NCBI RefSeq assembly: GCF_008000775.2
Contig: NZ_CP042905.2
Coordinates: 60,001-92,000 of the forward strand
DNA from: Promethearchaeum syntrophicum
GTDB lineage: Archaea; Asgardarchaeota; Lokiarchaeia; Sigyniarchaeales; Promethearchaeaceae
Reading direction: 5' to 3'
Length of the DNA stretch: 32,000 bases
Shown in pieces: positions 509 to 30,286 of the stretch (the first letter of the stretch is position 1; each line of letters opens with the position of its first letter). Made by a program: the position numbers and the translations under genes. The notes below the pieces were generated by a model that worked only from the letters and a program-made list of their open reading frames with translations, ran no database searches and was not told where the DNA came from.

Positions 509-1201
509 TTATTTCTTCTTTTTTCTTTTTTGTTTTACTTTCTTCCCTTTTTCTTTTTCATTTGGAACGTTATTGTTGATAAATCTTTGTGTAATATCTT
601 TTTCCAAACAATTTTGAGAATACTCACTTAAAATTTGATTCAATAAACCAATTCCATCAAAATCATAGGTTTTAGCTAAAGAAAGATCATTTTCAAATAG
701 CTTATCAATAATTGTCAAAGCTTCAACGGGAATATTTAAGTTAAAATCCATAGAAAAATAATCTTCCGTTTGTATTGAATCCAAAATCTTTGCTAATTGT
801 GGAGAAAATCCAGCAAAATTTGGGATAATCCCTTTCTTCATCCCTTTTAAAAGATCAGAATTGCTGGTATTTATTTCATCTAAGTAAATACTGAATAATT
901 CCGTAATTTCTGATAAAATTGCATGACTAGTTGTCGGATCGAATCCTGTCGATATTAATAATAAATCTACTTGCCCGATATGATCAAAATCGACCGTTTC
1001 AAAATCCAATAATGAATTTCCTAAACTTATTGATTTTAATTCATTCATTTTAGAACTTTGAAGAAAGGAGTTAGAAAAGGATTTTAGCGCGGAGAAAAAT
1101 GAGAGTAATAAACTTTCATCTATATTTTTATTGCTATAGTCTTTGGAATAAATAGGTATTCCATACTTATCTGCAATAAGTACTGCATCTATATCTCCCA
1201 T
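509..1201 (-). CDS. Hypothetical protein with an N-terminal longin/roadblock-like domain and a polybasic C-terminal tail
   Basis: The N-terminus reads IDAVLIADKYGIPIYSKDY...LLLSFFSALKSFSNSF...LKSISLGNSLLDFETVD...VDLLLIS. This follows the strand-strand-helix-strand-strand pattern of longin/roadblock (MglB, AP-sigma-like) folds. The tail is EKEKGKKVKQKRKKKK. Confidence 0.4.
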   Translation of the reverse strand: MGDIDAVLIADKYGIPIYSKDYSNKNIDESLLLSFFSALKSFSNSFLQSSKMNELKSISLGNSLLDFETVDFDHIGQVDLLLISTGFDPTTSHAILSEITELFSIYLDEINTSNSDLLKGMKKGIIPNFAGFSPQLAKILDSIQTEDYFSMDFNLNIPVEALTIIDKLFENDLSLAKTYDFDGIGLLNQILSEYSQNCLEKDITQRFINNNVPNEKEKGKKVKQKRKKKK

Positions 1202-4566: not shown

Positions 4567-5541
4567 TTGATAAAAATGCGGATATTATTGATAGGCCCGG
4601 GCAGTATTGGGGTACTTTTTGGAGGAAAATTGGCCCTCGCAGGTAATAGAATTTTAATATATGCTCGCCCTCACTTTTCAACGATTTTGAAAGAACATCC
4701 ATTAAAATTAACAGATATCATCAATAAAGAACATGTGGTCCCGAATTTTGAAAAGGCACCTCCAATTCCAGAATTAATCAAATTAAGCCCACAAGAATTT
4801 CCAAAAATATGCTTAATTACCACTAAATCTTATGATTTAGAGAGCGTTTGCAGAGAATATCAGCCTGTTCTTAACAAAATTCCAATTATTGGATTAATTC
4901 AAAATGGAATTGGAAATGAAGAAATTATTGAGAATAACTATCCGAATTCAATAATTTTCCGTATAATCACATCCCATGGAGCAATGAGAGAAAATATTAG
5001 TCATATTATTCACACTGGTATAGGAAATACTTCAATTTGCCAAATTAAACCTCCATATGAAAACATCTCTGCCGAGAATAAACAGATTATAAAAGAATTT
5101 ACTGATAATCTTCAATATGCAGGTTTTGAATTAAAATTAAATAAAAATCCTTTGGAAGCTATTTGGAGAAAAGCCTTAACGAATATTGGTATAAATGCTA
5201 TAGGTGCTTTGACTCAACTAACTAATGGAGAACTATTAAAATCCGAATCTTTATTAAATTTAATTCGAAAAACGATAAATGAAGCAATATTAATTGCAAA
5301 TAAATTACAAATTCCCCTTGATCCCTCGTTTGATTATGTTCAAAACACACTTGAAGTTCTAAAAAATACAGCAACCAATAAGAACAGCATGTTACAAGAT
5401 GTGCTAAGAAAGAAAAAAACCGAAATTGAATTTTTAAATGAAAAGATAGTGAATTATGGAAAAAAAATGCATATTCCGACTCCAATAAATAAAACTCTAT
5501 CACAACTAATTCATGGATTAGAAAATTCTTATATTTTATGA
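4567..5541 (+). CDS. panE: 2-dehydropantoate 2-reductase (ketopantoate reductase)
   Basis: Rossmann N-terminus ILLIGPGSIGVLFGGKLALAG and C-terminal NSMLQDVLRKKKTEIEFLNEKIV..G....IPTPIN, typical of ApbA/PanE. The likely true start is the ATG at 4576 (MRILLIGPG). Confidence 0.82.
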   Translation: MIKMRILLIGPGSIGVLFGGKLALAGNRILIYARPHFSTILKEHPLKLTDIINKEHVVPNFEKAPPIPELIKLSPQEFPKICLITTKSYDLESVCREYQPVLNKIPIIGLIQNGIGNEEIIENNYPNSIIFRIITSHGAMRENISHIIHTGIGNTSICQIKPPYENISAENKQIIKEFTDNLQYAGFELKLNKNPLEAIWRKALTNIGINAIGALTQLTNGELLKSESLLNLIRKTINEAILIANKLQIPLDPSFDYVQNTLEVLKNTATNKNSMLQDVLRKKKTEIEFLNEKIVNYGKKMHIPTPINKTLSQLIHGLENSYIL

Positions 5542-6107
5542 TAATCTTTCTCATAAACAACCCAACTAGCTCGACGCCGCCGCACTTGAAAATCATGGTC
5601 GAGTTGGGCAACCAGAACGTGTTCAGGATCTCCATGAATATAACTTACATCAACAACAGGTTCGGATGCAGTTAATACTAGATCTTTGGGAACTGGCATC
5701 ATAATAGGAGTGTTCCCACAAATTTGACATTCAATTAGAATATATTTTGTCTCGGTTGTTTCTTTTTTTGTGAGTTCTTCTAATTGATTGCTATTTAATT
5801 TTATTTTAATTGCTTTTTTCATAGGGGGAGGGGGAATTGAAAGGTCAATCTCACTCATATCAAGTTTTGGTTTTTTTAATTTTGTAGATCCTGATATTGT
5901 CTTTAGATTTTTTGGGGATTTTGGAACTTTTGGAGGTGGGGGAGTAGCCTTTTGTGGATTTTTTAATCCGTTTTCAAAAGTTTCAAGAAGATATTTCCAA
6001 GTTTCTCTCCAATGAACAGGGCTATCGCTTTTTTGATTCAAATCATCCTTGATATCTTTCATTTTAACCCAAATTTCTAAAGGTATTGATATAGTTTTAT
6101 TTGCCAT
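5529..6107 (-). CDS. Hypothetical protein: Pro/Lys-rich linker and a C-terminal Cys-containing domain
   Basis: 192-aa ORF. It has a low-complexity PPPPKVPKSPK middle and a C-terminus reading ILIECQICGN...YIHGDPEHVLVAQLDHDFQVRRRR. No family recognised. Its 3' end overlaps panE convergently by 13 nt. Confidence 0.5.
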   Translation of the reverse strand: MANKTISIPLEIWVKMKDIKDDLNQKSDSPVHWRETWKYLLETFENGLKNPQKATPPPPKVPKSPKNLKTISGSTKLKKPKLDMSEIDLSIPPPPMKKAIKIKLNSNQLEELTKKETTETKYILIECQICGNTPIMMPVPKDLVLTASEPVVDVSYIHGDPEHVLVAQLDHDFQVRRRRASWVVYEKDYHKI

Positions 6108-6235: not shown

Positions 6236-6754
6236 ATGCGACATCAAAAAAAAAGGTCTTTTCCAACCACATGTAAATTCTGCGGGGCATCAATATTATA
6301 TTGGGAAAGCACTGCAGGTCAGAAAGTTTTCTTTAATCTTCCAATTTATGGTAAACCTATATCTCATCGTTGTAAAAAAAGAAATAAGAAGAAATCAAAC
6401 GTTCTTGAGTCAAATAAAGATCATTTAGAAAAAAAAATTGAAAAGATCACCTTTCAATGCCCTGTTTGTAGTAAAATTTTAAACTCCGATACCGCTCTCA
6501 ATTCTCACATAAATAAATTAAGGAAACAAGATGATTATCATTCAGACTTTTTTGACTCTGCTATGGATTTATTAGTATGGAATGATTCTGAACAAAAAAA
6601 TCTCAACGATTTAGATATGAATCAGTATAAGACAAAACACTCATTTAGTGTTATGAGCGAGCGGTTTATACTAAAAACCAACAAGAATACAGAAGAAGAA
6701 GAGTATCAAAAATTTTTAAGGTTACAAAAATTAAAAAAAAATAAGGAAGAATAA
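6236..6754 (+). CDS. Zn-finger protein (CxxC...HxC treble-clef-like plus a C2H2-like finger) with a basic/acidic helical tail
   Basis: Contains CKFCG...HRC and FQCPVCSKILNSDTALNSHINKL (C-x2-C-x12-H). The stop lies 3 nt before the next gene's ATG. Confidence 0.6.
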   Translation: MRHQKKRSFPTTCKFCGASILYWESTAGQKVFFNLPIYGKPISHRCKKRNKKKSNVLESNKDHLEKKIEKITFQCPVCSKILNSDTALNSHINKLRKQDDYHSDFFDSAMDLLVWNDSEQKNLNDLDMNQYKTKHSFSVMSERFILKTNKNTEEEEYQKFLRLQKLKKNKEE

Positions 6755-6757
6755 TTT

Positions 6758-7384
6758 ATGCCAATAGAATTTGAAAAAATACTTGATGATTTGTTCGCAA
6801 AAGGCATCGTGATTGCGGCTGTTGTTTGCAGACGTAACGGAGAAATAGCCTATAGCTCATCGAACTGGAGTGTTGATCCAGGTGATCTTTCACAATGTAT
6901 TAAAAAGTGGCAATCTCGTGGGCAATTTACTCATTTACAAGATCGTAAATACGCATTACTTATGAATACACCAGAATACTTTAGTGGAATTAATTTCAAA
7001 GATAAAGATTTCTTGTTAGGAGCCGCTTCTCTGGATGAAAACGATCGTTATTACGTAATTGGGTATGCACCTCCAGGAGTTTCAGGAAGAAATGCATACG
7101 TCGATGTTGTACGGGCTGCAAATCAGATGAAAGAAGGGGTATATTTAGATGAAACTGCAAAATTGGGAAAATATGATGATACTCAAGTTGCAGCGGACGC
7201 AAGTGCTGCGGGTGGAATAGTGGATAACTCCTTAAAACAAGAAATTGATGGATTCTTAACTTGGATTCGAGATACAAATGGCTTATCCGGTTACATTCAA
7301 TATTATTTAGATCAAAATGATCCGGTTGTTTTAACAAAAATAGCCAAGGCATATAATGATTTTCGACGTATTTTTGGGTTTTAA
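6758..7384 (+). CDS. Profilin-like protein with a C-terminal extension of about 80 aa
   Basis: The first ~125 aa follow the profilin layout: N-terminal helix (IEFEKILDDLF), IAAVVCRRNGEIAYSSSNWSV, LQDRKYALLMNT, FLLGAAS, YYVIGYAPPGVSGRNAYVDVVRAANQMKEG. This resembles what I recall of Asgard profilins. Not verified by search. Confidence 0.55.
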   Translation: MPIEFEKILDDLFAKGIVIAAVVCRRNGEIAYSSSNWSVDPGDLSQCIKKWQSRGQFTHLQDRKYALLMNTPEYFSGINFKDKDFLLGAASLDENDRYYVIGYAPPGVSGRNAYVDVVRAANQMKEGVYLDETAKLGKYDDTQVAADASAAGGIVDNSLKQEIDGFLTWIRDTNGLSGYIQYYLDQNDPVVLTKIAKAYNDFRRIFGF

Positions 7385-7486
7385 GATCTTTTTTTTCACA
7401 TTTTGCACAATCTTTCTTTTTAATTTTAAAGATTTTTTAAAGTTCACAGATAATTAATTAATAGAAAAGGAGATTTTTGTGGGAAA

Positions 7487-8233
7487 ATGAAATTATTTAA
7501 AATTACTAAAGATGAAATTACTGAAACTAAAAATGTCAATCCTGAGGATATTGTTCTGGTATTAAATGAGGAAATGAAAAAACTTTACGTTTATAAAGGA
7601 GAAAAAAGCACTACTTATAATGAATTGAAATCGGATGCATTATTTGAAAGAATTACCAATCAATTTTTCAATCCAAAAATTTTCTTGATTAAATCCCTAG
7701 ATGTTACGAAACAAGATCATCTTGAAATTGTTCAAGCAAAGAATTTTATAATGAGCCATTTCCCTAATATTAAGAAATTTTGGGTAATGTATTACTTGAA
7801 AAATATATTCTTACTTCATCAAATCCGTAAAAATATAAAAGTTTTCAAAAGTTATGATAAATCTCGAATTTGGCGCTTAAGATTATCAAATACAACAAAT
7901 ATATGGTATTTGAGTATTATAAATACGATGACCTTATTAATTTTGGTTATTGGTTTACTTTGGAAGATAATTTCTTTGGGAAATACAAGTTTTATTAATT
8001 TAGATACTAATACAGTTGATCCTATAGGATGGGCATATTGGTTTGAGAATCTACAGTTGTTTTTTATTATCAGTGGGATCATTCTCATTATTTTACTGGT
8101 TGTAAATCTAATATTTGTTCTTTTTCCAATGAAATTTCCAATATCTCCTTCAAAAATTAAATTAATGACTTCAAATTTGAAAGAATCGGTTCCACATGAC
8201 GTAATTGATAATAAAGAATTGGAAAAGGATTAA
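7487..8233 (+). CDS. Gelsolin/cofilin-like N-terminal domain fused to a two-TM membrane anchor
   Basis: The N-terminal ~95 aa (KLFKITKDEITE...PEDIVLVLNEEMKKLYVYKGEKSTTYNELKSDALFERITNQF..PKIFLIKS) fit the gelsolin-repeat pattern. Hydrophobic helices IWYLSIINTMTLLILVIGLLWKII and LQLFFIISGIILIILLVVNLIFVLF follow. Confidence 0.4.
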   Translation: MKLFKITKDEITETKNVNPEDIVLVLNEEMKKLYVYKGEKSTTYNELKSDALFERITNQFFNPKIFLIKSLDVTKQDHLEIVQAKNFIMSHFPNIKKFWVMYYLKNIFLLHQIRKNIKVFKSYDKSRIWRLRLSNTTNIWYLSIINTMTLLILVIGLLWKIISLGNTSFINLDTNTVDPIGWAYWFENLQLFFIISGIILIILLVVNLIFVLFPMKFPISPSKIKLMTSNLKESVPHDVIDNKELEKD

Positions 8234-8352: not shown

Positions 8353-9363
8353 ATGCGGTCAAATTTTTTACAAAGTTTATATTGTCAAATGGTTCAAAAT
8401 CATTTATCAATGGAAGCTTCCAATAAAAAAAACTGTTTTTGTGAATCATTACATAATTGCCCAGAATGTAGATCTGAATCAATTTTTAAAGATTCCTTAA
8501 GAGGAGAATATATTTGTACAAATTGTGGATTAATTTTAGAATCAAATACAATTGATCACCGAGCAGAATGGAGAACATTTGATTCACGCGATTACGAAAA
8601 AAAATCACGTGTTGGAGCTCCTTTTACTTTGACAATACATGATAAAGGGCTTTCCACAATTATTGATTGGAGAGATAGAGATGGTTTAGGAAAAAAGTTA
8701 TCTCCTGTTAAGCGAGCTCAAGCTTATCGTTTACGGAAATGGCAAATTCGAATGCGAATTCACTCAGCTATAGATAGAAACTTATCTTTCGCTATGAGTG
8801 AGTTAGATAGATTAGCTTCACAATTAGGAATTCAAAAAACGCTGAAAGAAACATCTGCATTAATTTACAGAAAAACAATAAATAAAAATTTGATACGTGG
8901 GCGATCTATAGAAGCAATGATGGCTGCATCAATTTATGCTGCATGCAGATTAGCTCAAATTCCTAGGACTTTGGATGAATTTGCAAAAAATTCTCGAATT
9001 GAAAAAAAAGAATTAGGGAAATCATACAGATTAATTCTGCGCCAACTAAATTTAAAAATTACCTCGATAAATCCAAACCGTTTTGTCTCACGATTTGCTA
9101 ACGATCTAGAGATATCACAACAATCTCAACTTAAAGCTATTAAAATATTAAATGGTGCTCGAAGAATTGGGATAACTAGTGGTAAAGATCCATGTGGATT
9201 GGCTGCTGCATCAATTTATGTTGCAGTTTTAAGCAATGGAGAACGAAAAACACAAAAAGAAATTGCTCGAGTTGCTAATATAACTGAGGTTACGGTTAGA
9301 AATAGATATAAAGAATTAATAGGTAAATTGAATTTAAAAATTGAACCCTTAATTACTAATTAA
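8353..9363 (+). CDS. tfb: Transcription initiation factor IIB (TFB)
   Basis: Zn-ribbon CPECRSE...YICTNCGLIL, then IDHRAEWRTFD, then two cyclin-fold repeats (GRS.EAMMAASIYAACR and GKDPCGLAAASIYVA) and ITEVTVRNRYKEL. The true start is probably the ATG at 8410. Confidence 0.95.
   Translation: MRSNFLQSLYCQMVQNHLSMEASNKKNCFCESLHNCPECRSESIFKDSLRGEYICTNCGLILESNTIDHRAEWRTFDSRDYEKKSRVGAPFTLTIHDKGLSTIIDWRDRDGLGKKLSPVKRAQAYRLRKWQIRMRIHSAIDRNLSFAMSELDRLASQLGIQKTLKETSALIYRKTINKNLIRGRSIEAMMAASIYAACRLAQIPRTLDEFAKNSRIEKKELGKSYRLILRQLNLKITSINPNRFVSRFANDLEISQQSQLKAIKILNGARRIGITSGKDPCGLAAASIYVAVLSNGERKTQKEIARVANITEVTVRNRYKELIGKLNLKIEPLITN
8376..8383 (+). promoter_or_regulatory. Candidate TATA box for tfb, implying a leaderless mRNA that starts at the ATG at 8410
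   Basis: TTTATATT lies about 27 nt upstream of the in-frame ATG at 8410 (MEASNKK...). This is the usual archaeal TATA-to-start spacing. Confidence 0.35.
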
Positions 9364-9401
9364 TCTAAAAGCAAATAAAAATTCCGTTCGAATTAAAACC
9401 C

Positions 9402-9545
9402 TTAAATCGCTTTAACTTTTTTTATTACTGGTGGTCTCTTCTTATACAATATACGATGGCCACATGCAGGGCATTTTATTCCAGGTAATTGGTTTAAACT
9501 CTCTTGAGTTATTAATGTTTTACACTTTGCGCAAACATATTCCAT
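9402..9545 (-). CDS. rpoP: DNA-directed RNA polymerase subunit P (RpoP/Rpb12 homolog), 47 aa; below the ORF-track cutoff
   Basis: Manual reverse-strand translation gives MEYVCAKCKTLITQESLNQLPGIKCPACGHRILYKKRPPVIKKVKAI followed by stop. The YxCxxC...CPxCGxRILYK Zn-ribbon is the RpoP signature. Confidence 0.75.
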   Translation of the reverse strand: MEYVCAKCKTLITQESLNQLPGIKCPACGHRILYKKRPPVIKKVKAI

Positions 9546-9597
9546 AAAATATGAAGTATACCATTTTGTTTAAATTTTTCGCTTTAAAAAAGTTGAT

Positions 9598-10056
9598 TTA
9601 ATTAATGAGCAAAACTTTTGTAAAGAAATCAGGTTCTTTAATTATTTTGCTTAGAATTTTATTATATTCAAGAGTGGCTGAGTTCTCATTTTTTTTTGGA
9701 TCATAAGGCCACTCACCTAAGATGATAAAACCATTTGATTTATGGTTTGCAATTAAAATACCTTTTTTTTTGATTTTGTCATTACTTCCTGTAAATGTTA
9801 ATAAAAGTACATAAAATTGAATTATATCTTTTTTTGAGGCATTTCCAAGAGGTAGAATCTCTTTTATATTTGCAAAAGAATATACTTTCTTCTTTCGGGC
9901 TAATTCATTATATTCCAAAAGAAACGAAGGAAAAGCATCTAAATTATTTTGTTCTTGCGTAAATTTAAAAAACGTTAAGCTAATATTTTCAGAATTTTCG
10001 TCTGATACTCCTTGAAAATACACTTTATATATAGTGTTCTGCTCTGGAACTTTCAT
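9598..10056 (-). CDS. Hypothetical protein
   Basis: 152-aa ORF packed between rpoP and aIF1 on the same strand. No motif recognised. Confidence 0.45.
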   Translation of the reverse strand: MKVPEQNTIYKVYFQGVSDENSENISLTFFKFTQEQNNLDAFPSFLLEYNELARKKKVYSFANIKEILPLGNASKKDIIQFYVLLLTFTGSNDKIKKKGILIANHKSNGFIILGEWPYDPKKNENSATLEYNKILSKIIKEPDFFTKVLLIN

Positions 10057-10078
10057 AAAAAAACAACTCTTAGATTTT

Positions 10079-10441
10079 TTAAATAATTTCTATATTCTCA
10101 TCAGTATATCCAAGATTTAACAAAAATTTTTTTAATTTTCGCCTATGATCTCCTTGGATTTCAATGGTATTTCCTTTAACTGTTCCACCACTAGCACAAT
10201 AGCCTTTTGCCTGCTTACAGATCTTTTTAAGATTAGCTCCTGAAAAATTCGCGAAGTTAATCACACTCATTGCACGCCCCCACTTACGTTTATCAATAAA
10301 AATAGTAATAGTTTGCTCTTCTTGTTGAAGTGATTCACAGACACAGAGTTCTATGGGCAAACTACATTTGGGGCAGATTCCGATTAATTCTTTTTTAGCC
10401 AAGTAAAATTTCTTCTCCATAATTTTATACGTTTTTGTCAA
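10079..10441 (-). CDS. sui1: Translation initiation factor aIF1 (SUI1/eIF1 family)
   Basis: CPKCSLPIELCVCE Zn knuckle, then EEQTITIFIDKRKWGRAMSVI and GGTVKGNTIEIQGDHRRKLKKFL, the SUI1 core. The listed start is TTG; the ATG at 10420 is an alternative. Confidence 0.85.
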   Translation of the reverse strand: MTKTYKIMEKKFYLAKKELIGICPKCSLPIELCVCESLQQEEQTITIFIDKRKWGRAMSVINFANFSGANLKKICKQAKGYCASGGTVKGNTIEIQGDHRRKLKKFLLNLGYTDENIEII

Positions 10442-10550: not shown

Positions 10551-11816
10551 GTGAAAAAAATAATTCGTGGATCCACAATTAAAATAAATGATCCAATTCA
10601 CGGATTCATGGTCTTACCTGATTTTATAACGGAAATTGTCGATTCAAGGGAAATTCAACGGTTAATGAGGATTAGGCAACTTTCTGGTGCATCTCATGTG
10701 TATCCAGGAGCGAATCACACTCGTTTTGAGCATAGTTTAGGTGTAGCTTATTTAGCAAAAAGATTGTCAGAAAATTTACGAGATTTACAAGGAGTTGATA
10801 TCTCTGATGATGATATTAATGATTGCGTAGTTGCTGCATTGTGTCATGATATTGGACATGGTCCATTTTCTCATAATTTTGAGAGTCTTTTAATAAAACA
10901 CAACAATAAAGATCATGAAGATTACACTGAATGGTTAATCAAAAAATCAGAAATTGGAGAAAAAATAGAAGAATTCAGTTTTGATAAAAATTATATTTCA
11001 GATATTGCGACAGGTAAAATTATCGGAAAGGCAAACGAAAAGGGATATTTACTAAGTCAGATGATTACAAGTGCAGTTAATGTGGATTCAATGGATTATT
11101 TGATGAGAGATAATTATCATTGCGGAACTGAGAAAGCAACTGTAGATATTAATCGATTATTACTCTCTATGGATGAAATTGATGGTTTTTTAGGGGTTAA
11201 TATAAAGGCTCTAATTTCATTAGAAGGATTTTTATTATCTCGTATCAGTTCTTTCCGGACGATATACTTTCATAAAACTTGTAGATCAGTTCAAATGATG
11301 TTAGAAGAAGCAATGAAAAGTGTCGTTAATGAGATTGGATTTCTAAATTATTCAACTCCCGAAGATTTTCTTAAATGGGACGATTATGTCCTATGGACAG
11401 ATTTGATAAGAAATCCGATTTCTGCTATTTGGATGGAAAAAATTCAAAAAAGGGAATTACTAAAATCTTGTTTCGAATCCCAAATTCAAATATCAAATGA
11501 AAATATTGATGTTAGTGAGTTAAGGGAGAAAATATCTAGAAAAACGGGAATAAATGCTGCTGATATCTTTATTGATTTACCCAGTAGTCCAAATGTTCCA
11601 TATTCGCACACAGATCAAACACGACCGAATGAAATATATACATTTGAAAGGTTAGCAAATGGTAAAAAACAACCAGTACACCTAGAGGATCATTCAATTT
11701 TCTTCAATAATTTTAAAGGTTCTTTAAAAATTCTCAGAATATACACATGGCCGAAAAATCGGAAAAAAGTAGCTGATATTGCAAGTAGTCTATACGATAC
11801 GATATTGAAATACTAA
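10551..11816 (+). CDS. HD-domain phosphohydrolase, SAMHD1/dNTP-triphosphohydrolase-like (COG1078 type)
   Basis: RLMRIRQL..ASHVYPGANHTRFEHSLGVAYLA and ALCHDIGHGPFSH, with a later DSMDYLMRD motif. GTG start. Confidence 0.8.
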   Translation: MKKIIRGSTIKINDPIHGFMVLPDFITEIVDSREIQRLMRIRQLSGASHVYPGANHTRFEHSLGVAYLAKRLSENLRDLQGVDISDDDINDCVVAALCHDIGHGPFSHNFESLLIKHNNKDHEDYTEWLIKKSEIGEKIEEFSFDKNYISDIATGKIIGKANEKGYLLSQMITSAVNVDSMDYLMRDNYHCGTEKATVDINRLLLSMDEIDGFLGVNIKALISLEGFLLSRISSFRTIYFHKTCRSVQMMLEEAMKSVVNEIGFLNYSTPEDFLKWDDYVLWTDLIRNPISAIWMEKIQKRELLKSCFESQIQISNENIDVSELREKISRKTGINAADIFIDLPSSPNVPYSHTDQTRPNEIYTFERLANGKKQPVHLEDHSIFFNNFKGSLKILRIYTWPKNRKKVADIASSLYDTILKY

Positions 11817-11849
11817 AATTTTTTACTTTTCGAAGTTTTCTTTGAGTGA

Positions 11850-14003
11850 ATGTCAATGAATAAACTTGCTCCTCAAGGATTAAAAAAAAAAAAAAGAGGA
11901 ATGAAAGTACCCTATTTAGGAAGAATTAGCTTATTTTGGTGTGATGATTGTAATGTCCCCCTATTAGATGACAATCATTGCGATATTTGTAAGAAAAAAG
12001 GTCATAAACTACCTGTTTCTCCACCAGGAGATATTAGACCAGCCTTTGCAGATGATTATATAACATTATGGAAGTGCGTTGATAAGCAATATGGAGAAGG
12101 TGTGGGAGAAACACTTCTTCCTACTTCCAAAATAGTACTCATTAGTAGAATTGGAGGTCTGGATAGAACCGAAGAGGTTATTGTGGATGGAAAAATTTTA
12201 GGAATACTCCAATTTAATATTCTACTAAATGATTTTGAATTCTTACCTAAATTGGAGGGTGGAATCCTTATCTACAAAATTCAAGAAGCGCTCACACTAT
12301 CTCCGAAAAAACATATAAATCTGAATAACGATGGAATTCCCTTTGTATTAAATGGCAAATCTATTTTAGTTCCAGGGGTAGAGAGTTTTTCAGAGGATAT
12401 TAATAAAGGTGATCATTGTTTAATTATCGCTAAAGATAATCAATCAGGAAAATCTCAATGTATTGCAATCGGTTTAGCACGGGATAGCTCTAGTAATTTT
12501 CATGAAATGTTTAAAAATAAATACGGTGAATTGGCAAAAAATAAGACTTATATCAAACAACCCCCCATAATCGAGATCAAACATATAGAAATTGACATAA
12601 ATCAGAAAAAATATAATTCTGATGATGATTTTGAGCAAATTAATAAGTCGATTTTAATAAGTTTAAAAAACGCGTATAAAGCAAATTATCAATATTTACA
12701 AAGAAGAATAAAAAAGTCATTAAAATTCATCAGAAAAACTATAGCAGACATTAAAAAACCCGTTGCAGTGGCATATTCTGGAGGAAAAGATAGTCTAGGA
12801 GTTTTACTATTAGTTTGGAAAGTTTTGGGTCCAAATTTTAAAATATTTTTTGCTGATACAGGATTGGAACTCCCCGAAGTTTTAGATAATGTTCAACAGA
12901 TTGCCAAAGATCTTAAAATGGAATCAAATTTAATTATTGAAAGTGCTAATGATATTTTTTGGAAATTAATTGAATCATTTGGACCTCCGGGACGAGATTA
13001 CAGATTCTGTTGCCATTCTTTAAAAGCCCAAAACATCATGAAAATAATAAATACCATCTATGATGGCGAAAAGGTACTTGTTTTTCTTGGAGCTCGACAA
13101 TATGAATCATTAAATAGGATGAGATCGAAACTCGTTTATGTTAATTCGTTTATACCACTTCAAATCGCAGCAACCCCAATTAAATCTTGGAATGCTCTAA
13201 CTTTATGGTTGTACATTCTATTTGAACCAGTGAAAGATTTTGAAAGCGAGAATTTATTGGAAGTATCTATAACACCACTTTATTATGAGGGTCATGAACG
13301 TCTTGGTTGCTATTTATGCCCGGCAAGTAATCTTTCAAATTTCAAATTACTTAAAACTTCACATCCCAAATTATATGAACGATGGTTTTCCTTTCTGGAT
13401 ACATACGCTCAGAAACACAATTTACCAAAAGAATGGGTTCAATATGGACTATGGCGTTTTAAACAATATACTCCACAATGGAAGAATTTTGCAGATTCAT
13501 TAAATTTATCAATTGATTATAATTCCCCAGATTCATCTGCACCGCTAAGTTTGAATATTGCAAAAGGATTTTCTCAAAATATTGATGCAGATTTTTCAAT
13601 CAAAGGAAAATTTTCGCACACGCTTAAAATAGACGATTTTCTAAGGTTTTTACCTGCGTTAACTAATGATTTCCACTGGGATGAGTTCAATGGAATAATT
13701 GAAATTAATTCTAAATTTAAAAACATACCTTACGCACTAAAAATATTCATTGATGGTTCGTTTAATCTTAATAGTAAAGAAAAAGAGTTTGATTTTTATA
13801 AATTGACTGAATTATTAACGGGAACGGTTTCGCGATCTCTATATTGCAACAGTTGTAAAACTTGTATCAATGTCTGCACGCAAAATGCCATCAGATTAGA
13901 AATGGGAAAAATTCTCATAGATAATGATAAGTGCATTAACTGTTATGATTGTATCACCCATTGTCCCTTTTTTCAACTGGCAAAAAAAGCATTAAAAACG
14001 TGA
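11850..14003 (+). CDS. Multidomain protein: N-terminal Zn-ribbon, a PUA-like region, a PAPS-reductase/PP-loop ATP pyrophosphatase domain and a C-terminal 2x[4Fe-4S] ferredoxin-like domain
   Basis: CDDCNVP...CDICKKKG ribbon. PP-loop VAVAYSGGKDSLGV. Downstream CYLCP. C-terminal CNSCKTCINVC and CINCYDCITHCP clusters. Confidence 0.7.
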   Translation: MSMNKLAPQGLKKKKRGMKVPYLGRISLFWCDDCNVPLLDDNHCDICKKKGHKLPVSPPGDIRPAFADDYITLWKCVDKQYGEGVGETLLPTSKIVLISRIGGLDRTEEVIVDGKILGILQFNILLNDFEFLPKLEGGILIYKIQEALTLSPKKHINLNNDGIPFVLNGKSILVPGVESFSEDINKGDHCLIIAKDNQSGKSQCIAIGLARDSSSNFHEMFKNKYGELAKNKTYIKQPPIIEIKHIEIDINQKKYNSDDDFEQINKSILISLKNAYKANYQYLQRRIKKSLKFIRKTIADIKKPVAVAYSGGKDSLGVLLLVWKVLGPNFKIFFADTGLELPEVLDNVQQIAKDLKMESNLIIESANDIFWKLIESFGPPGRDYRFCCHSLKAQNIMKIINTIYDGEKVLVFLGARQYESLNRMRSKLVYVNSFIPLQIAATPIKSWNALTLWLYILFEPVKDFESENLLEVSITPLYYEGHERLGCYLCPASNLSNFKLLKTSHPKLYERWFSFLDTYAQKHNLPKEWVQYGLWRFKQYTPQWKNFADSLNLSIDYNSPDSSAPLSLNIAKGFSQNIDADFSIKGKFSHTLKIDDFLRFLPALTNDFHWDEFNGIIEINSKFKNIPYALKIFIDGSFNLNSKEKEFDFYKLTELLTGTVSRSLYCNSCKTCINVCTQNAIRLEMGKILIDNDKCINCYDCITHCPFFQLAKKALKT

Positions 14004-14160: not shown

Positions 14161-14688
14161 TTGTCAACTAACTGGATATTCAAAACAATCGTTGCCGGTG
14201 CCGGCGGTGTAGGGAAGACTGCCTTAATTGAACGATATGTCTCAGGTGCTTTTCTAGAAGACCACAAGATGACGATAGGGGCAGCTTTTTCTGTTAAAGA
14301 TGTAAAATTAGATACTGGAGAAAATGTGCGCATGCAACTCTGGGACTTTGCAGGAGAAGAAAGATTTCGGTTTTTACTCGGAGATTATTGTAAAGGGGCT
14401 TCCGGTGCTTTTATTTGTTTCGATATAACGGATTATTCAACATTTGAACAAATACCTGAATGGTTAAGGATTATTCGTCAAAATGCGGGTATGATTCCTA
14501 TTATATTAGTAGGAAATAAATATGATTTGGATAACCATGAATTAGAATTAGCCACAGCAGATGAATACGCTGAAAGTGCCAAATGTTTGATGAATGTGTT
14601 TTGTTCTGCAAAGTTGGACTTAAATGTAGAACCTATGTTTGCTGCAATGGCAAAATGGTTAATATATTATGCAAATTTAGCGGATTAA
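14161..14688 (+). CDS. Rab/Ras-like small GTPase
   Basis: G1 GAGGVGKT, switch I TIG, G3 WDFAGEERF (compare WDTAGQERF), G4 GNKYD, G5 CSAK. TTG start. There is no C-terminal Cys lipidation motif (it ends YYANLAD). Confidence 0.85.
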   Translation: MSTNWIFKTIVAGAGGVGKTALIERYVSGAFLEDHKMTIGAAFSVKDVKLDTGENVRMQLWDFAGEERFRFLLGDYCKGASGAFICFDITDYSTFEQIPEWLRIIRQNAGMIPIILVGNKYDLDNHELELATADEYAESAKCLMNVFCSAKLDLNVEPMFAAMAKWLIYYANLAD

Positions 14689-20812: not shown

Positions 20813-21865
20813 TTAATCTTCTTTTAGAGGTCTTGGTTCTTGATATTCAATTAAAATGTCTTTTAAATATTTCCGTAATTTCGAAATAATCTCATTTATT
20901 TGATTTTCAGCTAAAATACTCTTATCTAACGAACTTATGATTGAAAAATAATAATTAGCATAATATGGATTGCCAGATTTTTTCTCTTCCATAACACTTT
21001 TCATTTGCTCTTCTGAGATTTTTAAATCATCGTAAAGATGAAATTGGTAGCACAAATTCATAAACTCCCCATCAACACCCCGTATGCTTGTAACATCTAA
21101 ATTTTCATCTTCTAATTGGCCAAAAAACTCCAAATGACCGCTGATTATTTTATCTATTTTGTTTTCAAGTTCATAATCTTTACTTTTTGGATTAAATGTC
21201 TCCGAAATCACGAGACCCGTATGATCGAATAAAATTGCTTGAGCGATTTCAGTTTTATCCCGATATTCAATAATTTCATCTTGAATTTCATCATATCCGA
21301 TTAAATAACGCCTTAATCCGTTAGAGATCATATGGATAATGGTATACAAATTATATATACTTGTTAAATAAAACTGAAAATTATATTCTGGAAAAGTTTT
21401 TCTCAATAAACTCTTAACCATTGCCCTTCGGGCAATATATTCATCAGGATTTTCTTTAATAAATTCATAATCGGTTTTACTAAAACAGATATAAATAGGA
21501 AGATCTTTAGCATAACTTACTTTTTTTAATACTCCCAGAACTTCTTCTAAATATGAAATACTCTCACTAAAACGCATTTCATCCTGTATATCAATTAAAT
21601 ATATCAATAAATCAATACTCTCAAAATACATCTTGCGCTGGATATACATCTTGCGAAATTTACTTTGACCCCCCATATCAAAGAAATTTAATCGAAGGTC
21701 TAAAAAATCTCTTCTATAATAATCGATGCGTAAAGTTGGCTTTAAATTATGAATCTCGTCTTCATATCCATACATTCGTTTAAAGCTGACAAGCATGCTG
21801 GTTTTTCCAGCATTATCTAAACCACTTAATACTACTTTAATTGGTTTTTTCGTTTTATTGCTCAT
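20813..21865 (-). CDS. Arf/Sar-type small GTPase domain fused to a C-terminal roadblock/longin-like domain of about 165 aa
   Basis: G1 SGLDNAGKTS (Arf-family GLDxAGKT), G3 DMGGQ, and a degenerate G4 SKTD. The C-terminal half reads IAQAILFDHTGLVISETF...ISGHLEFFGQL...VTSIRGVDGEFMNLCYQF, which is roadblock-like. Confidence 0.65.
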   Translation of the reverse strand: MSNKTKKPIKVVLSGLDNAGKTSMLVSFKRMYGYEDEIHNLKPTLRIDYYRRDFLDLRLNFFDMGGQSKFRKMYIQRKMYFESIDLLIYLIDIQDEMRFSESISYLEEVLGVLKKVSYAKDLPIYICFSKTDYEFIKENPDEYIARRAMVKSLLRKTFPEYNFQFYLTSIYNLYTIIHMISNGLRRYLIGYDEIQDEIIEYRDKTEIAQAILFDHTGLVISETFNPKSKDYELENKIDKIISGHLEFFGQLEDENLDVTSIRGVDGEFMNLCYQFHLYDDLKISEEQMKSVMEEKKSGNPYYANYYFSIISSLDKSILAENQINEIISKLRKYLKDILIEYQEPRPLKED

Positions 21866-22966: not shown

Positions 22967-22987
22967 ACTCGTTCCTGATTAAGGTCC

Positions 22988-26085
<3,098 letters not shown>

Positions 26086-26178
26086 AATAGTCCGAGTGTT
26101 TGGGCTGGAAAAGGAACATGTGGGTCCTGGCTTTGAATCGGAATCATTGCAGAGCAGTCGAACGAGAGATCGTGCGAT

Positions 26179-28165: not shown

Positions 28166-30286
28166 TTATTTCATAATTTTGAGCCCATTTTTAAGCGAGA
28201 TGGAGAGCCTTTTATTGATTTTAGCGAGAATGGGATCGTTGGGGGGCAATTTTAGTTCGAGAATTTCTCTTTCACGGTGTCCTGCTTCCCATCCTAATCT
28301 TTCTTCTTCATCGCTGGTTAGGGATTTGAGATTGTCAGAATATTGCTGCGCGAGTTGGGAGGGGGATTTCCTATAATAGTTATAGAGTTCTTCTGGATTT
28401 CCATGTTGGTAATGTTCGATTAGATTTTTCCCTTTTGGGGTTAGATTGTCGATATTTAAAGCTTCTTCTTTAATTCCTTCCCAAACGGTGTAATCAAAGA
28501 TATTTTTTGGGATATTAGAGAGTGAGCGAAGGGGCAGACCCCAAATGGATAGGATTTGGAGTTTTTGTAATGATGCGATAAAATCAGGGATAATTTCGAA
28601 TTGATTTCCCCCTCCGATATCAATTTCCGTGAGATTCTTTAAGTTTTTCATGGATTCGGGCATGAATTGAAAATTATTGCCATAACACACGAGTCCTTCA
28701 ATGTTTGTTAGGCTTCCGAGCCACTTTGGGAGGATGGAGAGATTTGTATTTGTGAAAAGGAGACTTGTGAGATTTTTAAGATATTTGATGCTTGGGGGGA
28801 GTCGGTTGATCTTACATTCTTCTATATGAAGGGTTTCGAGCTTGGAAAATTTTTGAAATTTAATTTTTTTGATTTCGGATTCATTAAGTCGTGATAGATA
28901 GATTTCTTTAAGTTGTGTGAGTTTATTGATGGATGGCGGAATTTTCGTAGGAATAGGATTTATAATTGATATGGATGTCAAAGATGTGAGTGTGTCGATG
29001 TTTTCTGGGATAGGGAGCTTTGTTAAATTTAGTTGTGTGATTTGACCATGAGAGATTTTAATACTATTTGTGGTGCCTGCTTGTAATGAGAAGGATTTGT
29101 CATATTTTTCTTCAAGTTTTCTAATAAAATCTGCTTGATTTTTTAAGATAGGTTTATTTTTATATTTGGAGTATTGTTTTTGAATTTCTCTCTCTTTTTG
29201 AATTCTTCTTTCGATTGTATTAATAAATTTAATGATAAGATTTGGGGAAGCGCTTTTATGATATTGGTGGAAGTTTTTTTTAACATTGAAAGTACTAAAT
29301 TCAGCTAAATTTTGTAATTTTGAACGAAATAACTGGAGTTCTGATGTGCTGGCTTCCCACAATAATCGATTCCGATCTTCACCGGTTAGTGAGTTAAAAT
29401 CGTTAAGGAATTGTTTTGCGAGTTTTTGAGGGGATTTTTGGTAATATTGGAGTAATCCTTTAATGTCGCCGCTATTGAATAGTTTAGAACCTGTAGGAGA
29501 TAGAAAGAGATCTGAAGAGTCATTTTTATAGCTTTTTATGAATTCAGCGATAAATTTTTGAGGAATATTGGAGAGTGATCGGAGAGGGTTGTCGAAAAAA
29601 GATAGTTTTATTAAATTGGGGAATATAGAGATGAAATCTGGTATGGATTCAAACCTATTTTTAAAAATAACTAATTTCGAAAGATCAGTTAGATTTTTGA
29701 GAGTTTTCGGTAATGTGGAAATGGAACATTCAGAAATAGTAAGTTCATTAAGTGATAAAAGTTTTCCGAGTCTTTTTGGAATTGTTTTAATAGGGTTACC
29801 ATTAAGTGAGAGTTTTTTCAGATTTGGAATCTTTTCAATGTTCATCGGTAATTCGGAGAGACCACAATATGTGATATAAAGAATTTGAAGTTTCGAGAAG
29901 TGTTGGAATGGGAGATCGATTGATTTAAGTTTTATAGAATCAATATGAATCCTGATAAGGTTTGTGAGTTTGCTAAACGATGGCGGTAATTCGGAGATAT
30001 TTTGATTTTCAATGGTTAAATACTCAAGATTGGTCAAATTTCCGATGTTTTCGGGTAACTTATCGATTCTGTTAAAATTATTTTTTAAGTGTCCTCTAAT
30101 ACCTAGTGCAACAATGTTATAATCAACAACTCTATAACTCGCAGGTTTTCCTATGAGATGTTCAAGTTCGATAAGGACTTCTACATTGCTTTTAACCAAT
30201 GCTTGCCCGTTGTAGTTCATGAGTTCTTCGGATTGGTTTCGATGAATTTTAAGGACAGCGTTCTTTTCTTTGTTCTCCATTCTCAT
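28166..30286 (-). CDS. Leucine-rich-repeat protein with an internally duplicated architecture: two copies of an LRR block followed by a ~90-aa helical module
   Basis: 706 aa. Units of 22-24 aa of the form LxxLxxLxLxxNxLxxLPxxIxxL occur in two blocks. Each block is followed by PLRSLSNIP...YY(Q/R)KSP(Q/S)xLAxQ(F/Y)...SLT(G/S)(E/D)(D/E)xxRLxWEA. Confidence 0.85.
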   Translation of the reverse strand: MRMENKEKNAVLKIHRNQSEELMNYNGQALVKSNVEVLIELEHLIGKPASYRVVDYNIVALGIRGHLKNNFNRIDKLPENIGNLTNLEYLTIENQNISELPPSFSKLTNLIRIHIDSIKLKSIDLPFQHFSKLQILYITYCGLSELPMNIEKIPNLKKLSLNGNPIKTIPKRLGKLLSLNELTISECSISTLPKTLKNLTDLSKLVIFKNRFESIPDFISIFPNLIKLSFFDNPLRSLSNIPQKFIAEFIKSYKNDSSDLFLSPTGSKLFNSGDIKGLLQYYQKSPQKLAKQFLNDFNSLTGEDRNRLLWEASTSELQLFRSKLQNLAEFSTFNVKKNFHQYHKSASPNLIIKFINTIERRIQKEREIQKQYSKYKNKPILKNQADFIRKLEEKYDKSFSLQAGTTNSIKISHGQITQLNLTKLPIPENIDTLTSLTSISIINPIPTKIPPSINKLTQLKEIYLSRLNESEIKKIKFQKFSKLETLHIEECKINRLPPSIKYLKNLTSLLFTNTNLSILPKWLGSLTNIEGLVCYGNNFQFMPESMKNLKNLTEIDIGGGNQFEIIPDFIASLQKLQILSIWGLPLRSLSNIPKNIFDYTVWEGIKEEALNIDNLTPKGKNLIEHYQHGNPEELYNYYRKSPSQLAQQYSDNLKSLTSDEEERLGWEAGHREREILELKLPPNDPILAKINKRLSISLKNGLKIMK

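Follow-up and report, generated by a model that had tools for sequence, protein, structure and literature searches.

Cultured Lokiarchaeia possess actin-filled protrusions and are able to crawl (PMC9834061; bioRxiv 10.1101/2025.11.30.690169), and their Lokiactin filaments run both along the cell periphery and inside the protrusions (PMC9834061). The gelsolin-type proteins listed by Akil 2020 comprise ProGel, 1DGelX and 2DGel (PMC7444086). All characterised Asgard actin regulators are soluble; for the gelsolins this had also been stated in a first-pass annotation of the locus described here, in agreement with the literature, and the word 'transmembrane' occurs in neither of the two papers concerned (Akil 2020, PMC7444086; Akil 2022, PMC9433394). 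A protein connecting Lokiactin to the membrane is named in none of PMC9834061, bioRxiv 10.1101/2025.11.30.690169, PMC7444086 and PMC9433394, and the authors of the crawling study indicated that their actin co-immunoprecipitation was biased against membrane proteins (bioRxiv 10.1101/2025.11.30.690169).

The window analysed here, a stretch of 32,000 nucleotides from Promethearchaeum syntrophicum (contig NZ_CP042905.2, positions 60,001 to 92,000), encodes a protein, GH-TM, in which a gelsolin-homology (GH) domain is followed by two predicted membrane-spanning helices. The gelsolin-type domain, the two-helix anchor and the adjoining profilin gene together make GH-TM a testable candidate for an Asgard actin–membrane link. 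The gelsolin-type fold is the one through which known gelsolins bind actin. The locus contains the following features:

5529..6107, minus strand: gene for a 192-aa soluble protein, apparently the split-off C-terminal half of an ancestral or alternative long form of GH-TM
5961-6107, minus strand: ribbon-helix-helix-like N-terminus of the 192-aa protein, residues 1-49
5778-5960, minus strand: Pro/Lys-rich linker with the motif D-L-S-I-P-P-P-P-M-K-K
5541-5777, minus strand: Cys/His ('CCHH') domain, ~75 aa
6236..6754, plus strand: gene for a zinc-ribbon/C2H2 protein, 172 aa, 3 bp upstream of the profilin gene
6758..7384, plus strand: gene for a profilin paralogue, 208 aa (phmmer against the PDB)
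6758-7132, plus strand: profilin domain, residues 1-125
7133-7381, plus strand: conserved C-terminal extension of the profilin paralogue, ~80 aa
7385..7486, plus strand: intergenic region between the profilin and GH-TM genes, with T8 (7389-7396), AATTTTAAA (7422-7430) and GGAG (7469-7472)
7487..8233, plus strand: GH-TM gene, 248 aa, ATG start, stop codon 8231-8233 (open reading frame listing)
7487..7762, plus strand: GH domain, residues 1-92 (family profile, AF2, Foldseek, column conservation)
7772..7900, plus strand: basic/aromatic juxtamembrane segment, residues 96-138, with 11 K/R and 1 D/E
7901..7975, plus strand: predicted transmembrane helix 1, residues 139-163, mean Kyte-Doolittle 1.86 over 25 residues
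7976..8050, plus strand: inter-helix loop, residues 164-188, 0 K/R and 3 D/E, predicted outside
8051..8125, plus strand: predicted transmembrane helix 2, residues 189-213, mean Kyte-Doolittle 2.95
8126..8230, plus strand: predicted cytoplasmic tail, residues 214-248

The GH-TM frame is a real gene under purifying selection, with a dN/dS of ~0.17 (range 0.16-0.19, against three relatives), and it is conserved in Promethearchaeaceae and in other Promethearchaeota MAGs. Close relatives numbered 21, and a search of 1.84 billion representative proteins brought the genuine relatives to 35. The second homologue search took a divergent long-form member as query, the search with a 39-sequence alignment giving at least 20 matches, and scans of genomes and metagenomes, with a single peptide pattern each, gave 6 loci. 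The gene is unannotated in Promethearchaeum, and the few relatives that bear a name are all labelled 'hypothetical protein'. Having no Pfam match, the family is missed by routine annotation and is probably absent from current lists of Asgard actin-binding proteins.

The first-pass annotation had read residues 1-95 as fitting the gelsolin-repeat pattern, quoting the peptide LVLNEEMKKLYVYKGEKSTTYNELKSDALFERI, which we located at residues 24-56, and had placed two hydrophobic helices at ~140-215. The former reading was borne out by the family profile against the PDB, the AF2 topology and Foldseek, and the range given for the helices is correct. Their hydropathy and charge asymmetry are conserved in 34/34 full-length relatives. 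The same three lines of evidence support the assignment of residues ~1-92 to a single gelsolin-homology domain. Full-length GH-TM gave no gelsolin match in Pfam or in a phmmer search of the PDB, and residues 1-94 alone matched PF00626 (Gelsolin repeat) with E=0.1 and 12.9 bits, below the gathering score of 21 bits. Across the family, PF00626 matched more members than any other Pfam entry did, 4 of 33 with a best E of 0.018. With a profile built from 33 members, hmmsearch of 177,635 PDB sequences retrieved Thorarchaeota ProGel (7c2f_B) with E=6.4e-4, and 26 of the 28 matches at E≤10 were gelsolin-family proteins, including gelsolin, villin, adseverin, CapG and Asgard 2DGel. The gelsolin resemblance is not significant with the single sequence but is significant with the family profile and with the structure model. 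An hhalign comparison of the family profile with human gelsolin G1 gave a probability of 0.1, a value that carries no information since the template consisted of one sequence. No second GH domain was found by Pfam or PDB searches in residues 96-248 or in the C-termini of long-form relatives.

The AF2 model of residues 1-100 (pLDDT 79.5, pTM 0.71) places strands at residues 2-6, 11-13, 22-27 and 32-37, a long helix at 50-60, a strand at 64-68 and a short helix at 79-90, which is the gelsolin order of elements: four strands, long helix, strand, short helix. The best 50 Foldseek matches of this model in the PDB were all actin-binding gelsolins, the best being ProGel (E=1.1e-5, TM 0.58/0.64); the TM-scores are moderate (0.5-0.64), and the domain is 17% identical to ProGel. 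The full-length protein, modelled with 16 close sequences, reached a pLDDT of 54.6, and for this reason the model was kept out of the structure search.

Conserved positions in the GH domain include D21, Y34, Y36-x-G38, D/N45, E46, the LYERIxNxF stretch (52-60), D77 and K85. Conservation is highest in the long helix (L52, Y53, E54, R55, I56, N58, F60), and not all of these residues can be buried. This is the helix by which gelsolins contact actin. The WxG ('DWG') site at the end of strand D reads Y36-K37-G38 in GH-TM, i.e., YxG; of the 33 sequences, 23 have Y, 8 have W and 2 have F at its first position, and G38 is kept in 26. The window protein thus carries an aromatic-x-G at the expected WxG place, without the canonical W. 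The type-II Ca2+ ligands of gelsolin domains are an Asp opening strand C and an acidic residue opening the long helix. In the sequence alignment, D21 (27/33) falls on the canonical aspartate, the Asp in gelsolin 'sED-CFIL'. The column of the second ligand, which is Asp in 19/33 and Asn in the window's clade, falls on the Glu in 'FERLKA' of gelsolin G2, a residue which we take to be E209.

Beyond the GH domain, two membrane-spanning helices are predicted from hydropathy and charge asymmetry. The 19-residue Kyte-Doolittle means peak at 2.2 (~139-165) and 3.2 (~189-213), and the mean hydropathy amounts to 1.3-2.4 for helix 1 in 34/34 full-length relatives and to 2.2-3.1 for helix 2 in all relatives. 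Each helix contains an invariant asparagine, Asn146 (nt 7922-7924; family alignment A4) in helix 1 and Asn207 (nt 8105-8107) in helix 2. In 34/34 full-length relatives the flank preceding the helices contains 8-15 K/R and the loop, 5-29 residues long, 0-2 K/R, so both termini of GH-TM are predicted to be cytoplasmic. The juxtamembrane segment, also predicted to be cytoplasmic, ranks with the most conserved stretches of the family (R114, F120, K121, S126, W129, R130, S134, N135). Its residues 106-126 show a moderate hydrophobic moment (0.34-0.50), and it possibly lies at the membrane interface. The conserved motif FPMKFPISP begins at residue 213 (nt 8123-8149) and runs into the tail; in long-form relatives the chain runs on past the tail into a linker and a Cys/His domain.

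We favour, with confidence a little better than even, the reading in which GH-TM is an integral membrane protein with cytoplasmic ends, whose hairpin holds an actin-binding GH domain at the membrane. The hairpin would keep the GH domain on the cytoplasmic side of the cell membrane. There the domain would bind Lokiactin via its long helix, in the manner of ProGel, gelsolin and cofilin, and its target would be either a filament, contacted at the side or the end, or a monomer. GH-TM would then tether or locally regulate filaments at the membrane, around the cell body as well as in the protrusions. That each helix has an invariant Asn suggests hairpin packing or oligomerisation, which would result in multivalent, bundling-type tethering. 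That the GH domain binds actin and that GH-TM acts as a direct actin–membrane linker is what we infer from the features above, and the profilin gene next door counts in favour. The Asn in the second Ca2+ column of this clade, the moderate TM-scores with 17% identity to ProGel, and the signs of separate transcription described below count against.

The GH fold also occurs without actin binding in Sec23/24, as was noted for Sec23a (PMC7444086). By analogy, the fold in GH-TM might have been repurposed as a protein-interaction or regulatory module that does not bind actin, with the profilin adjacency being merely inherited gene order; we find this unlikely, while granting it an appreciable share of the probability. 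It would fit the Pfam score under the cut-off, the YxG in place of WxG, and the juxtamembrane segment and FPMKFPISP motif being better conserved than the GH domain. The structural comparison argues against it, as no Sec23/24 protein appears among the best 50 Foldseek matches, and ProGel, which has been crystallised on actin, is the best match by both sequence and structure. The long helix being the best conserved element of the domain also speaks for actin binding, as does the resemblance of the layout of GH domain, linker and C-terminal Zn-type domain to that of Loki2DGel, which regulates actin.

The gene neighbourhood bears on the repurposed fold from both sides. The paralogue encoded upstream of GH-TM matches Loki profilin-1 in the PDB (phmmer, 5zza_P, E=2.3e-7 over residues 2-125) and the profilin 7pbh_A (E=2.9e-5); in Pfam its PF00235 match (E=0.0032, 18 bits) falls below the 25-bit cut-off. 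It lies directly upstream of GH-TM and on the same strand in 17/18 informative loci, and is retained down to 25% GH-TM identity, which speaks against the repurposed fold. On the other hand, the L019 lineage has no profilin neighbour, and the whole ~12-kb neighbourhood is syntenic throughout, with TFB directly downstream of GH-TM and with SUI1, HD hydrolase and PAPS reductase genes. The profilin adjacency may therefore partly reflect a general conservation of gene order that extends to TFB and translation genes. The T8 tract lies just past the profilin stop codon, and AATTTTAAA, invariant in five Promethearchaeum loci, is a candidate TATA element; with promoter and terminator roles assumed for them, the two elements suggest that the profilin and GH-TM genes are transcribed separately. 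In the proteomics tables for L. ossiferum, B35_Pro1 (22.8 kDa) agrees in mass with the extended profilin and is a candidate orthologue on that basis. B35_Pro2 and B35_2DGel2 are different, smaller proteins.

Two further genes complete a conserved cluster in the order CCHH-domain protein, zinc-finger protein, extended profilin paralogue, GH-TM. The 172-aa zinc-finger protein matches zf-C2H2_4 below the cut-off (E=1.9e-4) and has orthologues at every locus extending far enough upstream of the profilin gene. The 192-aa protein is connected with GH-TM itself. Many GH-TM relatives carry an extra Pro/Lys-rich linker and a small Cys/His domain at their C-terminus, and an HMM of these long-form C-termini matches the 192-aa frame with E=4.5e-36, the frame being 67% identical to the C-terminus of P0061. 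Judging from these comparisons, GH-TM is the short version of a longer protein, the C-terminal half of which is a separate gene (5529..6107, minus strand). A separate minus-strand gene is likewise present in L004, L007, L009 and L010, and the linker-CCHH module, whether fused or split, is always ≤ ~2 kb away. The short form of P0022 was dropped as independent evidence of gene fission, as its contig carries several frameshift-split genes. For the CCHH domain and for the whole 192-aa frame, searches of Pfam, NCBIfam and the PDB gave nothing convincing, the top match being Zn_ribbon_Brz (E=0.0084, in 4/21 members). Other Lokiarchaeia have linker and CCHH domain as the C-terminal part of GH-TM itself, which makes it very probable that the 192-aa protein and GH-TM work jointly.

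The cluster also brings up the possibility that the module, rather than tethering passively, assembles actin actively at the membrane. Filament ends would be capped or nucleated there by the anchored GH domain, and the linker motif, which resembles polyproline or LKKT/WH2, would deliver profilin-actin through the dedicated profilin paralogue, in analogy to formin FH1 and Ena/VASP, so that protrusions grow. We hold this improbable. It draws on the short motif [D/E]-L-x-I-P-x-x-P-x-K-K, conserved within an otherwise variable linker, and on a dedicated profilin paralogue that is 60-70% identical across loci at which GH-TM is 35-46% identical, its extra C-terminal domain being highly conserved. 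The proposal is entirely inferential, and in the window's clade the linker resides on a separate soluble protein, so that delivery would need a further interaction. Loki profilins, moreover, are said to lack polyproline binding, as Akil and Robinson reportedly found in 2018, and this too counts against it. Among other Asgard proteins, 2DGels use WH2-like motifs (PMC9433394) and Survery 2021, by its title, reports polyproline binding by a Heimdallarchaeal profilin, both of which would suit an assembly factor; ProGel-type domains regulate weakly in vitro (PMC7444086), which would not. In its fullest version, to which we assign a low probability, the four-gene cluster would encode a Lokiarchaeial machine that is embedded in the membrane and both assembles and anchors actin, functionally a prokaryotic counterpart of membrane-proximal polymerases of the formin or Ena/VASP type. 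Its anchored GH domain would hold filament ends or sides while the Pro/Lys motif and the dedicated profilin feed monomers. Such a machine would account for the extension and stabilisation of the cell protrusions by Lokiactin.

It is very improbable that the hydrophobic segments do not span the membrane (forming, e.g., the core of a soluble oligomer) or that the frame is not a real gene: hydropathy and charge are the sole basis of the topology and confidence in the full-length AF2 model is low, but two 25-residue stretches with a mean Kyte-Doolittle of up to 3.1 and the positive-inside asymmetry in 34/34 relatives speak for the membrane, and the dN/dS and the conservation across Promethearchaeaceae and other Promethearchaeota MAGs for a gene.

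The comparison of the membrane-anchored GH-TM with known systems begins within its own phylum. Loki2DGel / MKD1-2DGel (PDB 7WHG, PMC9433394) regulates actin, and its layout of GH domain(s), long linker and small C-terminal metal-binding-type domain is common to the long-form GH-TM relatives. The MKD1-2DGel linker is Pro-rich, and the C-terminal Zn domain of 2DGel also exists as a stand-alone protein (PMC9433394). In contrast to GH-TM, with its one GH domain, 2DGels lack a membrane anchor and carry two GH domains with a WH2-like motif between them. The 2DGel Zn domain follows a (CxxC)2 pattern whereas the CCHH domain follows CxxC...H-x4-H, and the CCHH profile (A6) gave no match at E≤10 to the 335-residue 7whg_G chain; the overall layout of the proteins is similar. 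Thor 1DGelX / B35_GelX, compared by description, resembles GH-TM in having one GH domain followed by non-gelsolin sequence, and in human cells GFP-1DGelX accumulated in ER- and nuclear-envelope-like regions (PMC7444086). However, the X domain is described as coiled-coil or disordered, 1DGelX was purified and assayed as a soluble protein, and its GH domain is 35% identical to ProGel as compared with ~17% for GH-TM.

The eukaryotic gelsolin superfamily (gelsolin, villin, CapG, adseverin, supervillin) shares the GH fold with GH-TM, and the gelsolin type-II Ca2+ Asp aligns with a conserved Asp of GH-TM. Its members have 3-6 repeats, in contrast to the one GH domain of GH-TM. Several are peripherally associated with membranes, through PIP2 binding or, for supervillin, membrane association, and to our knowledge none is an integral membrane protein. 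If the proposed role is confirmed, an integral-membrane gelsolin would be a solution that eukaryotes are not known to use, and an actin-binding fold would have been anchored directly in the membrane before eukaryotes arose.

The closest described protein is ProGel (PDB 7C2F, PMC7444086), which, like GH-TM, has a single gelsolin/cofilin-type domain of ~90 residues with an equal order of strands and helices. The two differ at the WxG site (IYLWRG in ProGel, YxG in GH-TM), and their identity is ~17%. GH-TM is not a ProGel-only protein, as ~155 residues with two predicted transmembrane helices extend beyond its GH domain in 34/34 full-length relatives. What is a free soluble domain in ProGel is joined in GH-TM to a conserved juxtamembrane segment and a putative two-helix membrane anchor.

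The open reading frame at 7487..8233 on the forward strand, which begins with ATG and encodes 248 aa, is a real gene and lies exactly where the first-pass annotation had placed a gelsolin-like domain fused to two transmembrane helices. The protein is referred to here as GH-TM, for its gelsolin-homology (GH) domain and predicted membrane anchor. Its dN/dS against three Promethearchaeum relatives is 0.16–0.19, and the G+C content of the window is around 31%. A collection of 5.8 billion proteins contains 21 close relatives; the two with an organism-bearing name come from 'Promethearchaeota archaeon' MAGs, and the loci closest to that of the window are named Promethearchaeum sp. Scanned exhaustively with HMMER, 1.84 billion representative proteins yielded 37 matches; two of them, an LRR/TIR protein and a DUF5522 protein, are repeat-rich and were discounted as spurious.

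Full-length GH-TM has no match in Pfam, nor in the PDB by phmmer, and the isolated GH domain scored 12.9 bits against PF00626 (E = 0.1), under the cut-off of 21. A profile of 33 aligned N-terminal domains, searched against all PDB sequences, found Thorarchaeota ProGel first (7c2f_B, E = 6.4e-4), and 26 of the 28 PDB matches listed at E ≤ 10 are gelsolin, villin, adseverin, CapG or Asgard 2DGel. The AlphaFold2 model of residues 1–100, computed from an input alignment of 25 sequences (pLDDT 79.5, pTM 0.71), places strands at 2–6, 11–13, 22–27 and 32–37, a helix at 50–60, a strand at 64–68 and a helix at 79–90, which, as modelled, is the gelsolin order. When this model was compared with the PDB by Foldseek, gelsolin-family chains filled all top 50 places, among which there were no Sec23/24 or cofilin entries; the best match was actin-bound ProGel (E = 1.1e-5, TM 0.58/0.64). 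The family-level profile, the model and the structure search thus point to an N-terminal gelsolin domain despite the null single-sequence searches, in support of the original proposal, and GH-TM belongs to the gelsolin-homology superfamily by profile and predicted fold. D21, kept in 27 of the 33 domains, falls in the column of the Asp that binds Ca2+ in gelsolin domains, and Y34 followed by Y/W36-x-G38 occupies the gelsolin WxG site. The best conserved element is the long helix LYERIxNxF, in which F60 is invariant; this helix opens with an acidic pair at positions 45–46, the first of which is Asn, not Asp, in the window's clade.

The two hydrophobic segments noticed in the first pass also held up, with 19-residue Kyte–Doolittle peaks of 2.2 (residues ~139–165) and 3.2 (~189–213). 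Both stretches are kept in all 34 full-length relatives (25-residue means 1.3–2.4 and 2.2–3.1), where the flank preceding them carries 8–15 K/R (11 K/R against one D/E in the window protein) and the inter-helix loop, 5–29 residues long, carries 0–2. Under the positive-inside rule, this charge pattern predicts a cytoplasmic GH domain and C-terminal tail and an outward-facing loop, which, at only five residues in some members, would connect the helices rather than form a domain. One Asn is invariant in each helix (N146, N207). Polar residues within transmembrane helices are tied to tight packing or oligomerisation, and the two Asn residues suggest one or the other here. Conservation of the juxtamembrane segment (96–138), and of the FPMKFPISP motif that follows helix 2, equals or exceeds that of the GH domain; the AlphaFold2 run on the full-length protein was poor (pLDDT 54.6).

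Many GH-TM relatives are longer (380–445 aa) and continue after the hairpin with a variable Pro/Lys-rich linker, bearing the conserved motif [D/E]-L-x-I-P-x-x-P-x-K-K, and a domain of ~75 residues with a near-invariant C-x2-C ... H-x4-H pattern and the motif QLDHDFxVRRRR. For this C-terminal (CCHH) domain Pfam, NCBIfam and the PDB offer nothing convincing; an HMM built from it matches a separate ORF of the window (E = 4.5e-36). That ORF and additional copies in related loci are as follows:

5529..6107, minus strand: 192-aa ORF with a ribbon-helix-helix-like N-terminus, a Pro/Lys linker containing DLSIPPPPMKK, and a Cys/His domain
L003 4722..4955 and L012 5704..5934: extra stand-alone copies of the Cys/His domain, 76–77 aa, between the profilin and long-form GH-TM genes

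The 192-aa ORF, which has no Pfam or NCBIfam match, corresponds to the C-terminal half of the long GH-TM forms, split off as a gene of its own; its identity to the C-terminus of one of them, P0061, is 67%. A divergent intergenic region of 128 bp separates it from a zinc-finger gene at 6236. A separate minus-strand CCHH gene also lies between ketopantoate reductase and zinc-finger genes in L004, L007, L009 and L010 (the last from Candidatus Harpocratesius repetitus, family Promethearchaeaceae), and the stand-alone protein has gained its conserved ribbon-helix-helix-like N-terminus. In L001, L002, L003, L012 and L019 the linker–CCHH module is fused to GH-TM; with their extra stand-alone copies, the clusters of L003 and L012 have the Cys/His domain twice. 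That the two are fused in some genomes and separate neighbours in others strongly indicates that GH-TM and the CCHH protein work together. In the C-terminal-domain alignment, three relatives (P0024, P0059, P0062) have lost both the CxxC pair and the first conserved His while keeping the second His, a joint loss consistent with a shared putative metal site. One apparent gene fission, in which the short form P0022 of L005 is followed by an overlapping 147-aa ORF with the Cys/His domain, was rejected, as splits also affect the HD and PAPS-reductase genes of that contig; all of them look like frameshift errors of long-read assembly:

L005, contig ctg89913l, 6001..7181, 9080..10380 and 10885..12560: split genes

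The gene directly upstream of GH-TM encodes a profilin paralogue:

6758..7384, plus strand: profilin paralogue, with PDB similarity over residues 2–125 (Loki profilin-1 5zza_P, E = 2.3e-7; another profilin, 7pbh_A, E = 2.9e-5)
L019 29..1030, minus strand: Arf/Rag-like GTPase, 333 aa, with a long C-terminal extension, upstream of GH-TM

Its C-terminal extension of ~80 aa (consensus ...IDPALKQEIDGFLQWIxDPNGLxGYIxYYLxxND...AYNDFRRxFGF) has no family match and varies less between loci than the profilin domain does. The profilin gene lies on the same strand directly upstream of GH-TM in 17 of the 18 loci reaching far enough, including that of the most divergent member (25% GH-TM identity); the sole exception is L019, where the GTPase gene takes its place. 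The whole neighbourhood is syntenic, with a zinc-ribbon/C2H2 gene before profilin in every locus reaching that far, TFB directly downstream of GH-TM, SUI1, HD hydrolase and PUA-PAPS reductase. Given this synteny, and a 102-bp profilin–GH-TM spacer in which a T8 tract occurs along with a conserved AATTTTAAA element, co-transcription is not implied, and the adjacency may partly be inherited gene order. In mass, the paralogue (~23 kDa) matches L. ossiferum B35_Pro1, listed at 22.8 kDa. In Supplementary Table 3 of bioRxiv 10.1101/2025.11.30.690169, the L. ossiferum genes B35_Pro2 (GNAMCCOK_02587) and B35_2DGel2 (GNAMCCOK_02589) are two tags apart, so Lokiarchaeia may have a second profilin–gelsolin gene pairing.

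Elsewhere the window encodes four genes of eukaryote-signature type, an rRNA gene and two small ORFs:

509..1201, minus strand: longin-like protein (Fuz_longin_1, E = 1.4e-4, under cut-off)
14161..14688, plus strand: Ras-family GTPase (E = 5e-41)
20813..21865, minus strand: Gtr1/RagA-like GTPase (E = 2.5e-20)
28166..30286, minus strand: leucine-rich-repeat protein, 706 aa, in a strongly GC-skewed stretch (skew 0.32–0.40)
22982..26107, plus strand: complete archaeal 23S rRNA gene (2507 bits; match of 3126 nt against a 2987-nt model)
9402..9545, minus strand: 47-aa zinc-ribbon ORF, at the position where the relatives' ORF matches Zn_ribbon_RPAB4
9598..10056, minus strand: 152-aa ORF with no family match, adjoining the zinc-ribbon ORF

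At Rfam gathering thresholds the 32-kb window has no 16S or 5S gene, and the ~2 kb upstream of the 23S gene hold protein-coding ORFs, so the rRNA genes appear unlinked. Among seven related loci examined by gene list, an unannotated ORF of ~150 aa adjoins SUI1 on the same strand in all, and a zinc-ribbon ORF of ~48 aa occurs in five.

On balance, we lean towards a GH-TM that binds Lokiactin and thereby, on the inner membrane face, tethers filaments or regulates them locally. By analogy with ProGel, which binds filament sides and bundles filaments (PMC7444086), the GH domain would bind through its long helix, and such a domain, membrane-anchored and possibly oligomeric, would be a side-binding tether, consistent with Lokiactin filaments that follow the cell periphery and the protrusions (PMC9834061). 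Five GH proteins (26–40 kDa for the four with masses) were enriched in an L. ossiferum Lokiactin co-IP in which, the authors warn, membrane proteins are under-represented (bioRxiv 10.1101/2025.11.30.690169). That the gelsolin fold of GH-TM is put to a non-actin use seems unlikely. An active formin/VASP-like role in filament assembly, in which the dedicated profilin would act together with the motif of the linker, is more doubtful still, and it is barely conceivable that GH-TM is no membrane protein.

Three Asgard gelsolin architectures have been published: ProGel, 1DGelX and 2DGel. The word 'transmembrane' is absent from Akil 2020 (PMC7444086) and Akil 2022 (PMC9433394), and no description of a transmembrane or membrane-anchored Asgard gelsolin was found in the literature searched, where the GH-TM architecture is thus undescribed. 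Loki2DGel and MKD1-2DGel, like long-form GH-TM, combine GH domain(s), a linker and a small C-terminal domain, which in the 2DGels is a Zn domain that also occurs alone (PMC9433394). However, their Zn domain is of (CxxC)2 type, unlike the CCHH domain, whose profile does not match 7whg_G; the likeness to the 2DGels is therefore one of design, and this comparison shows no homology.
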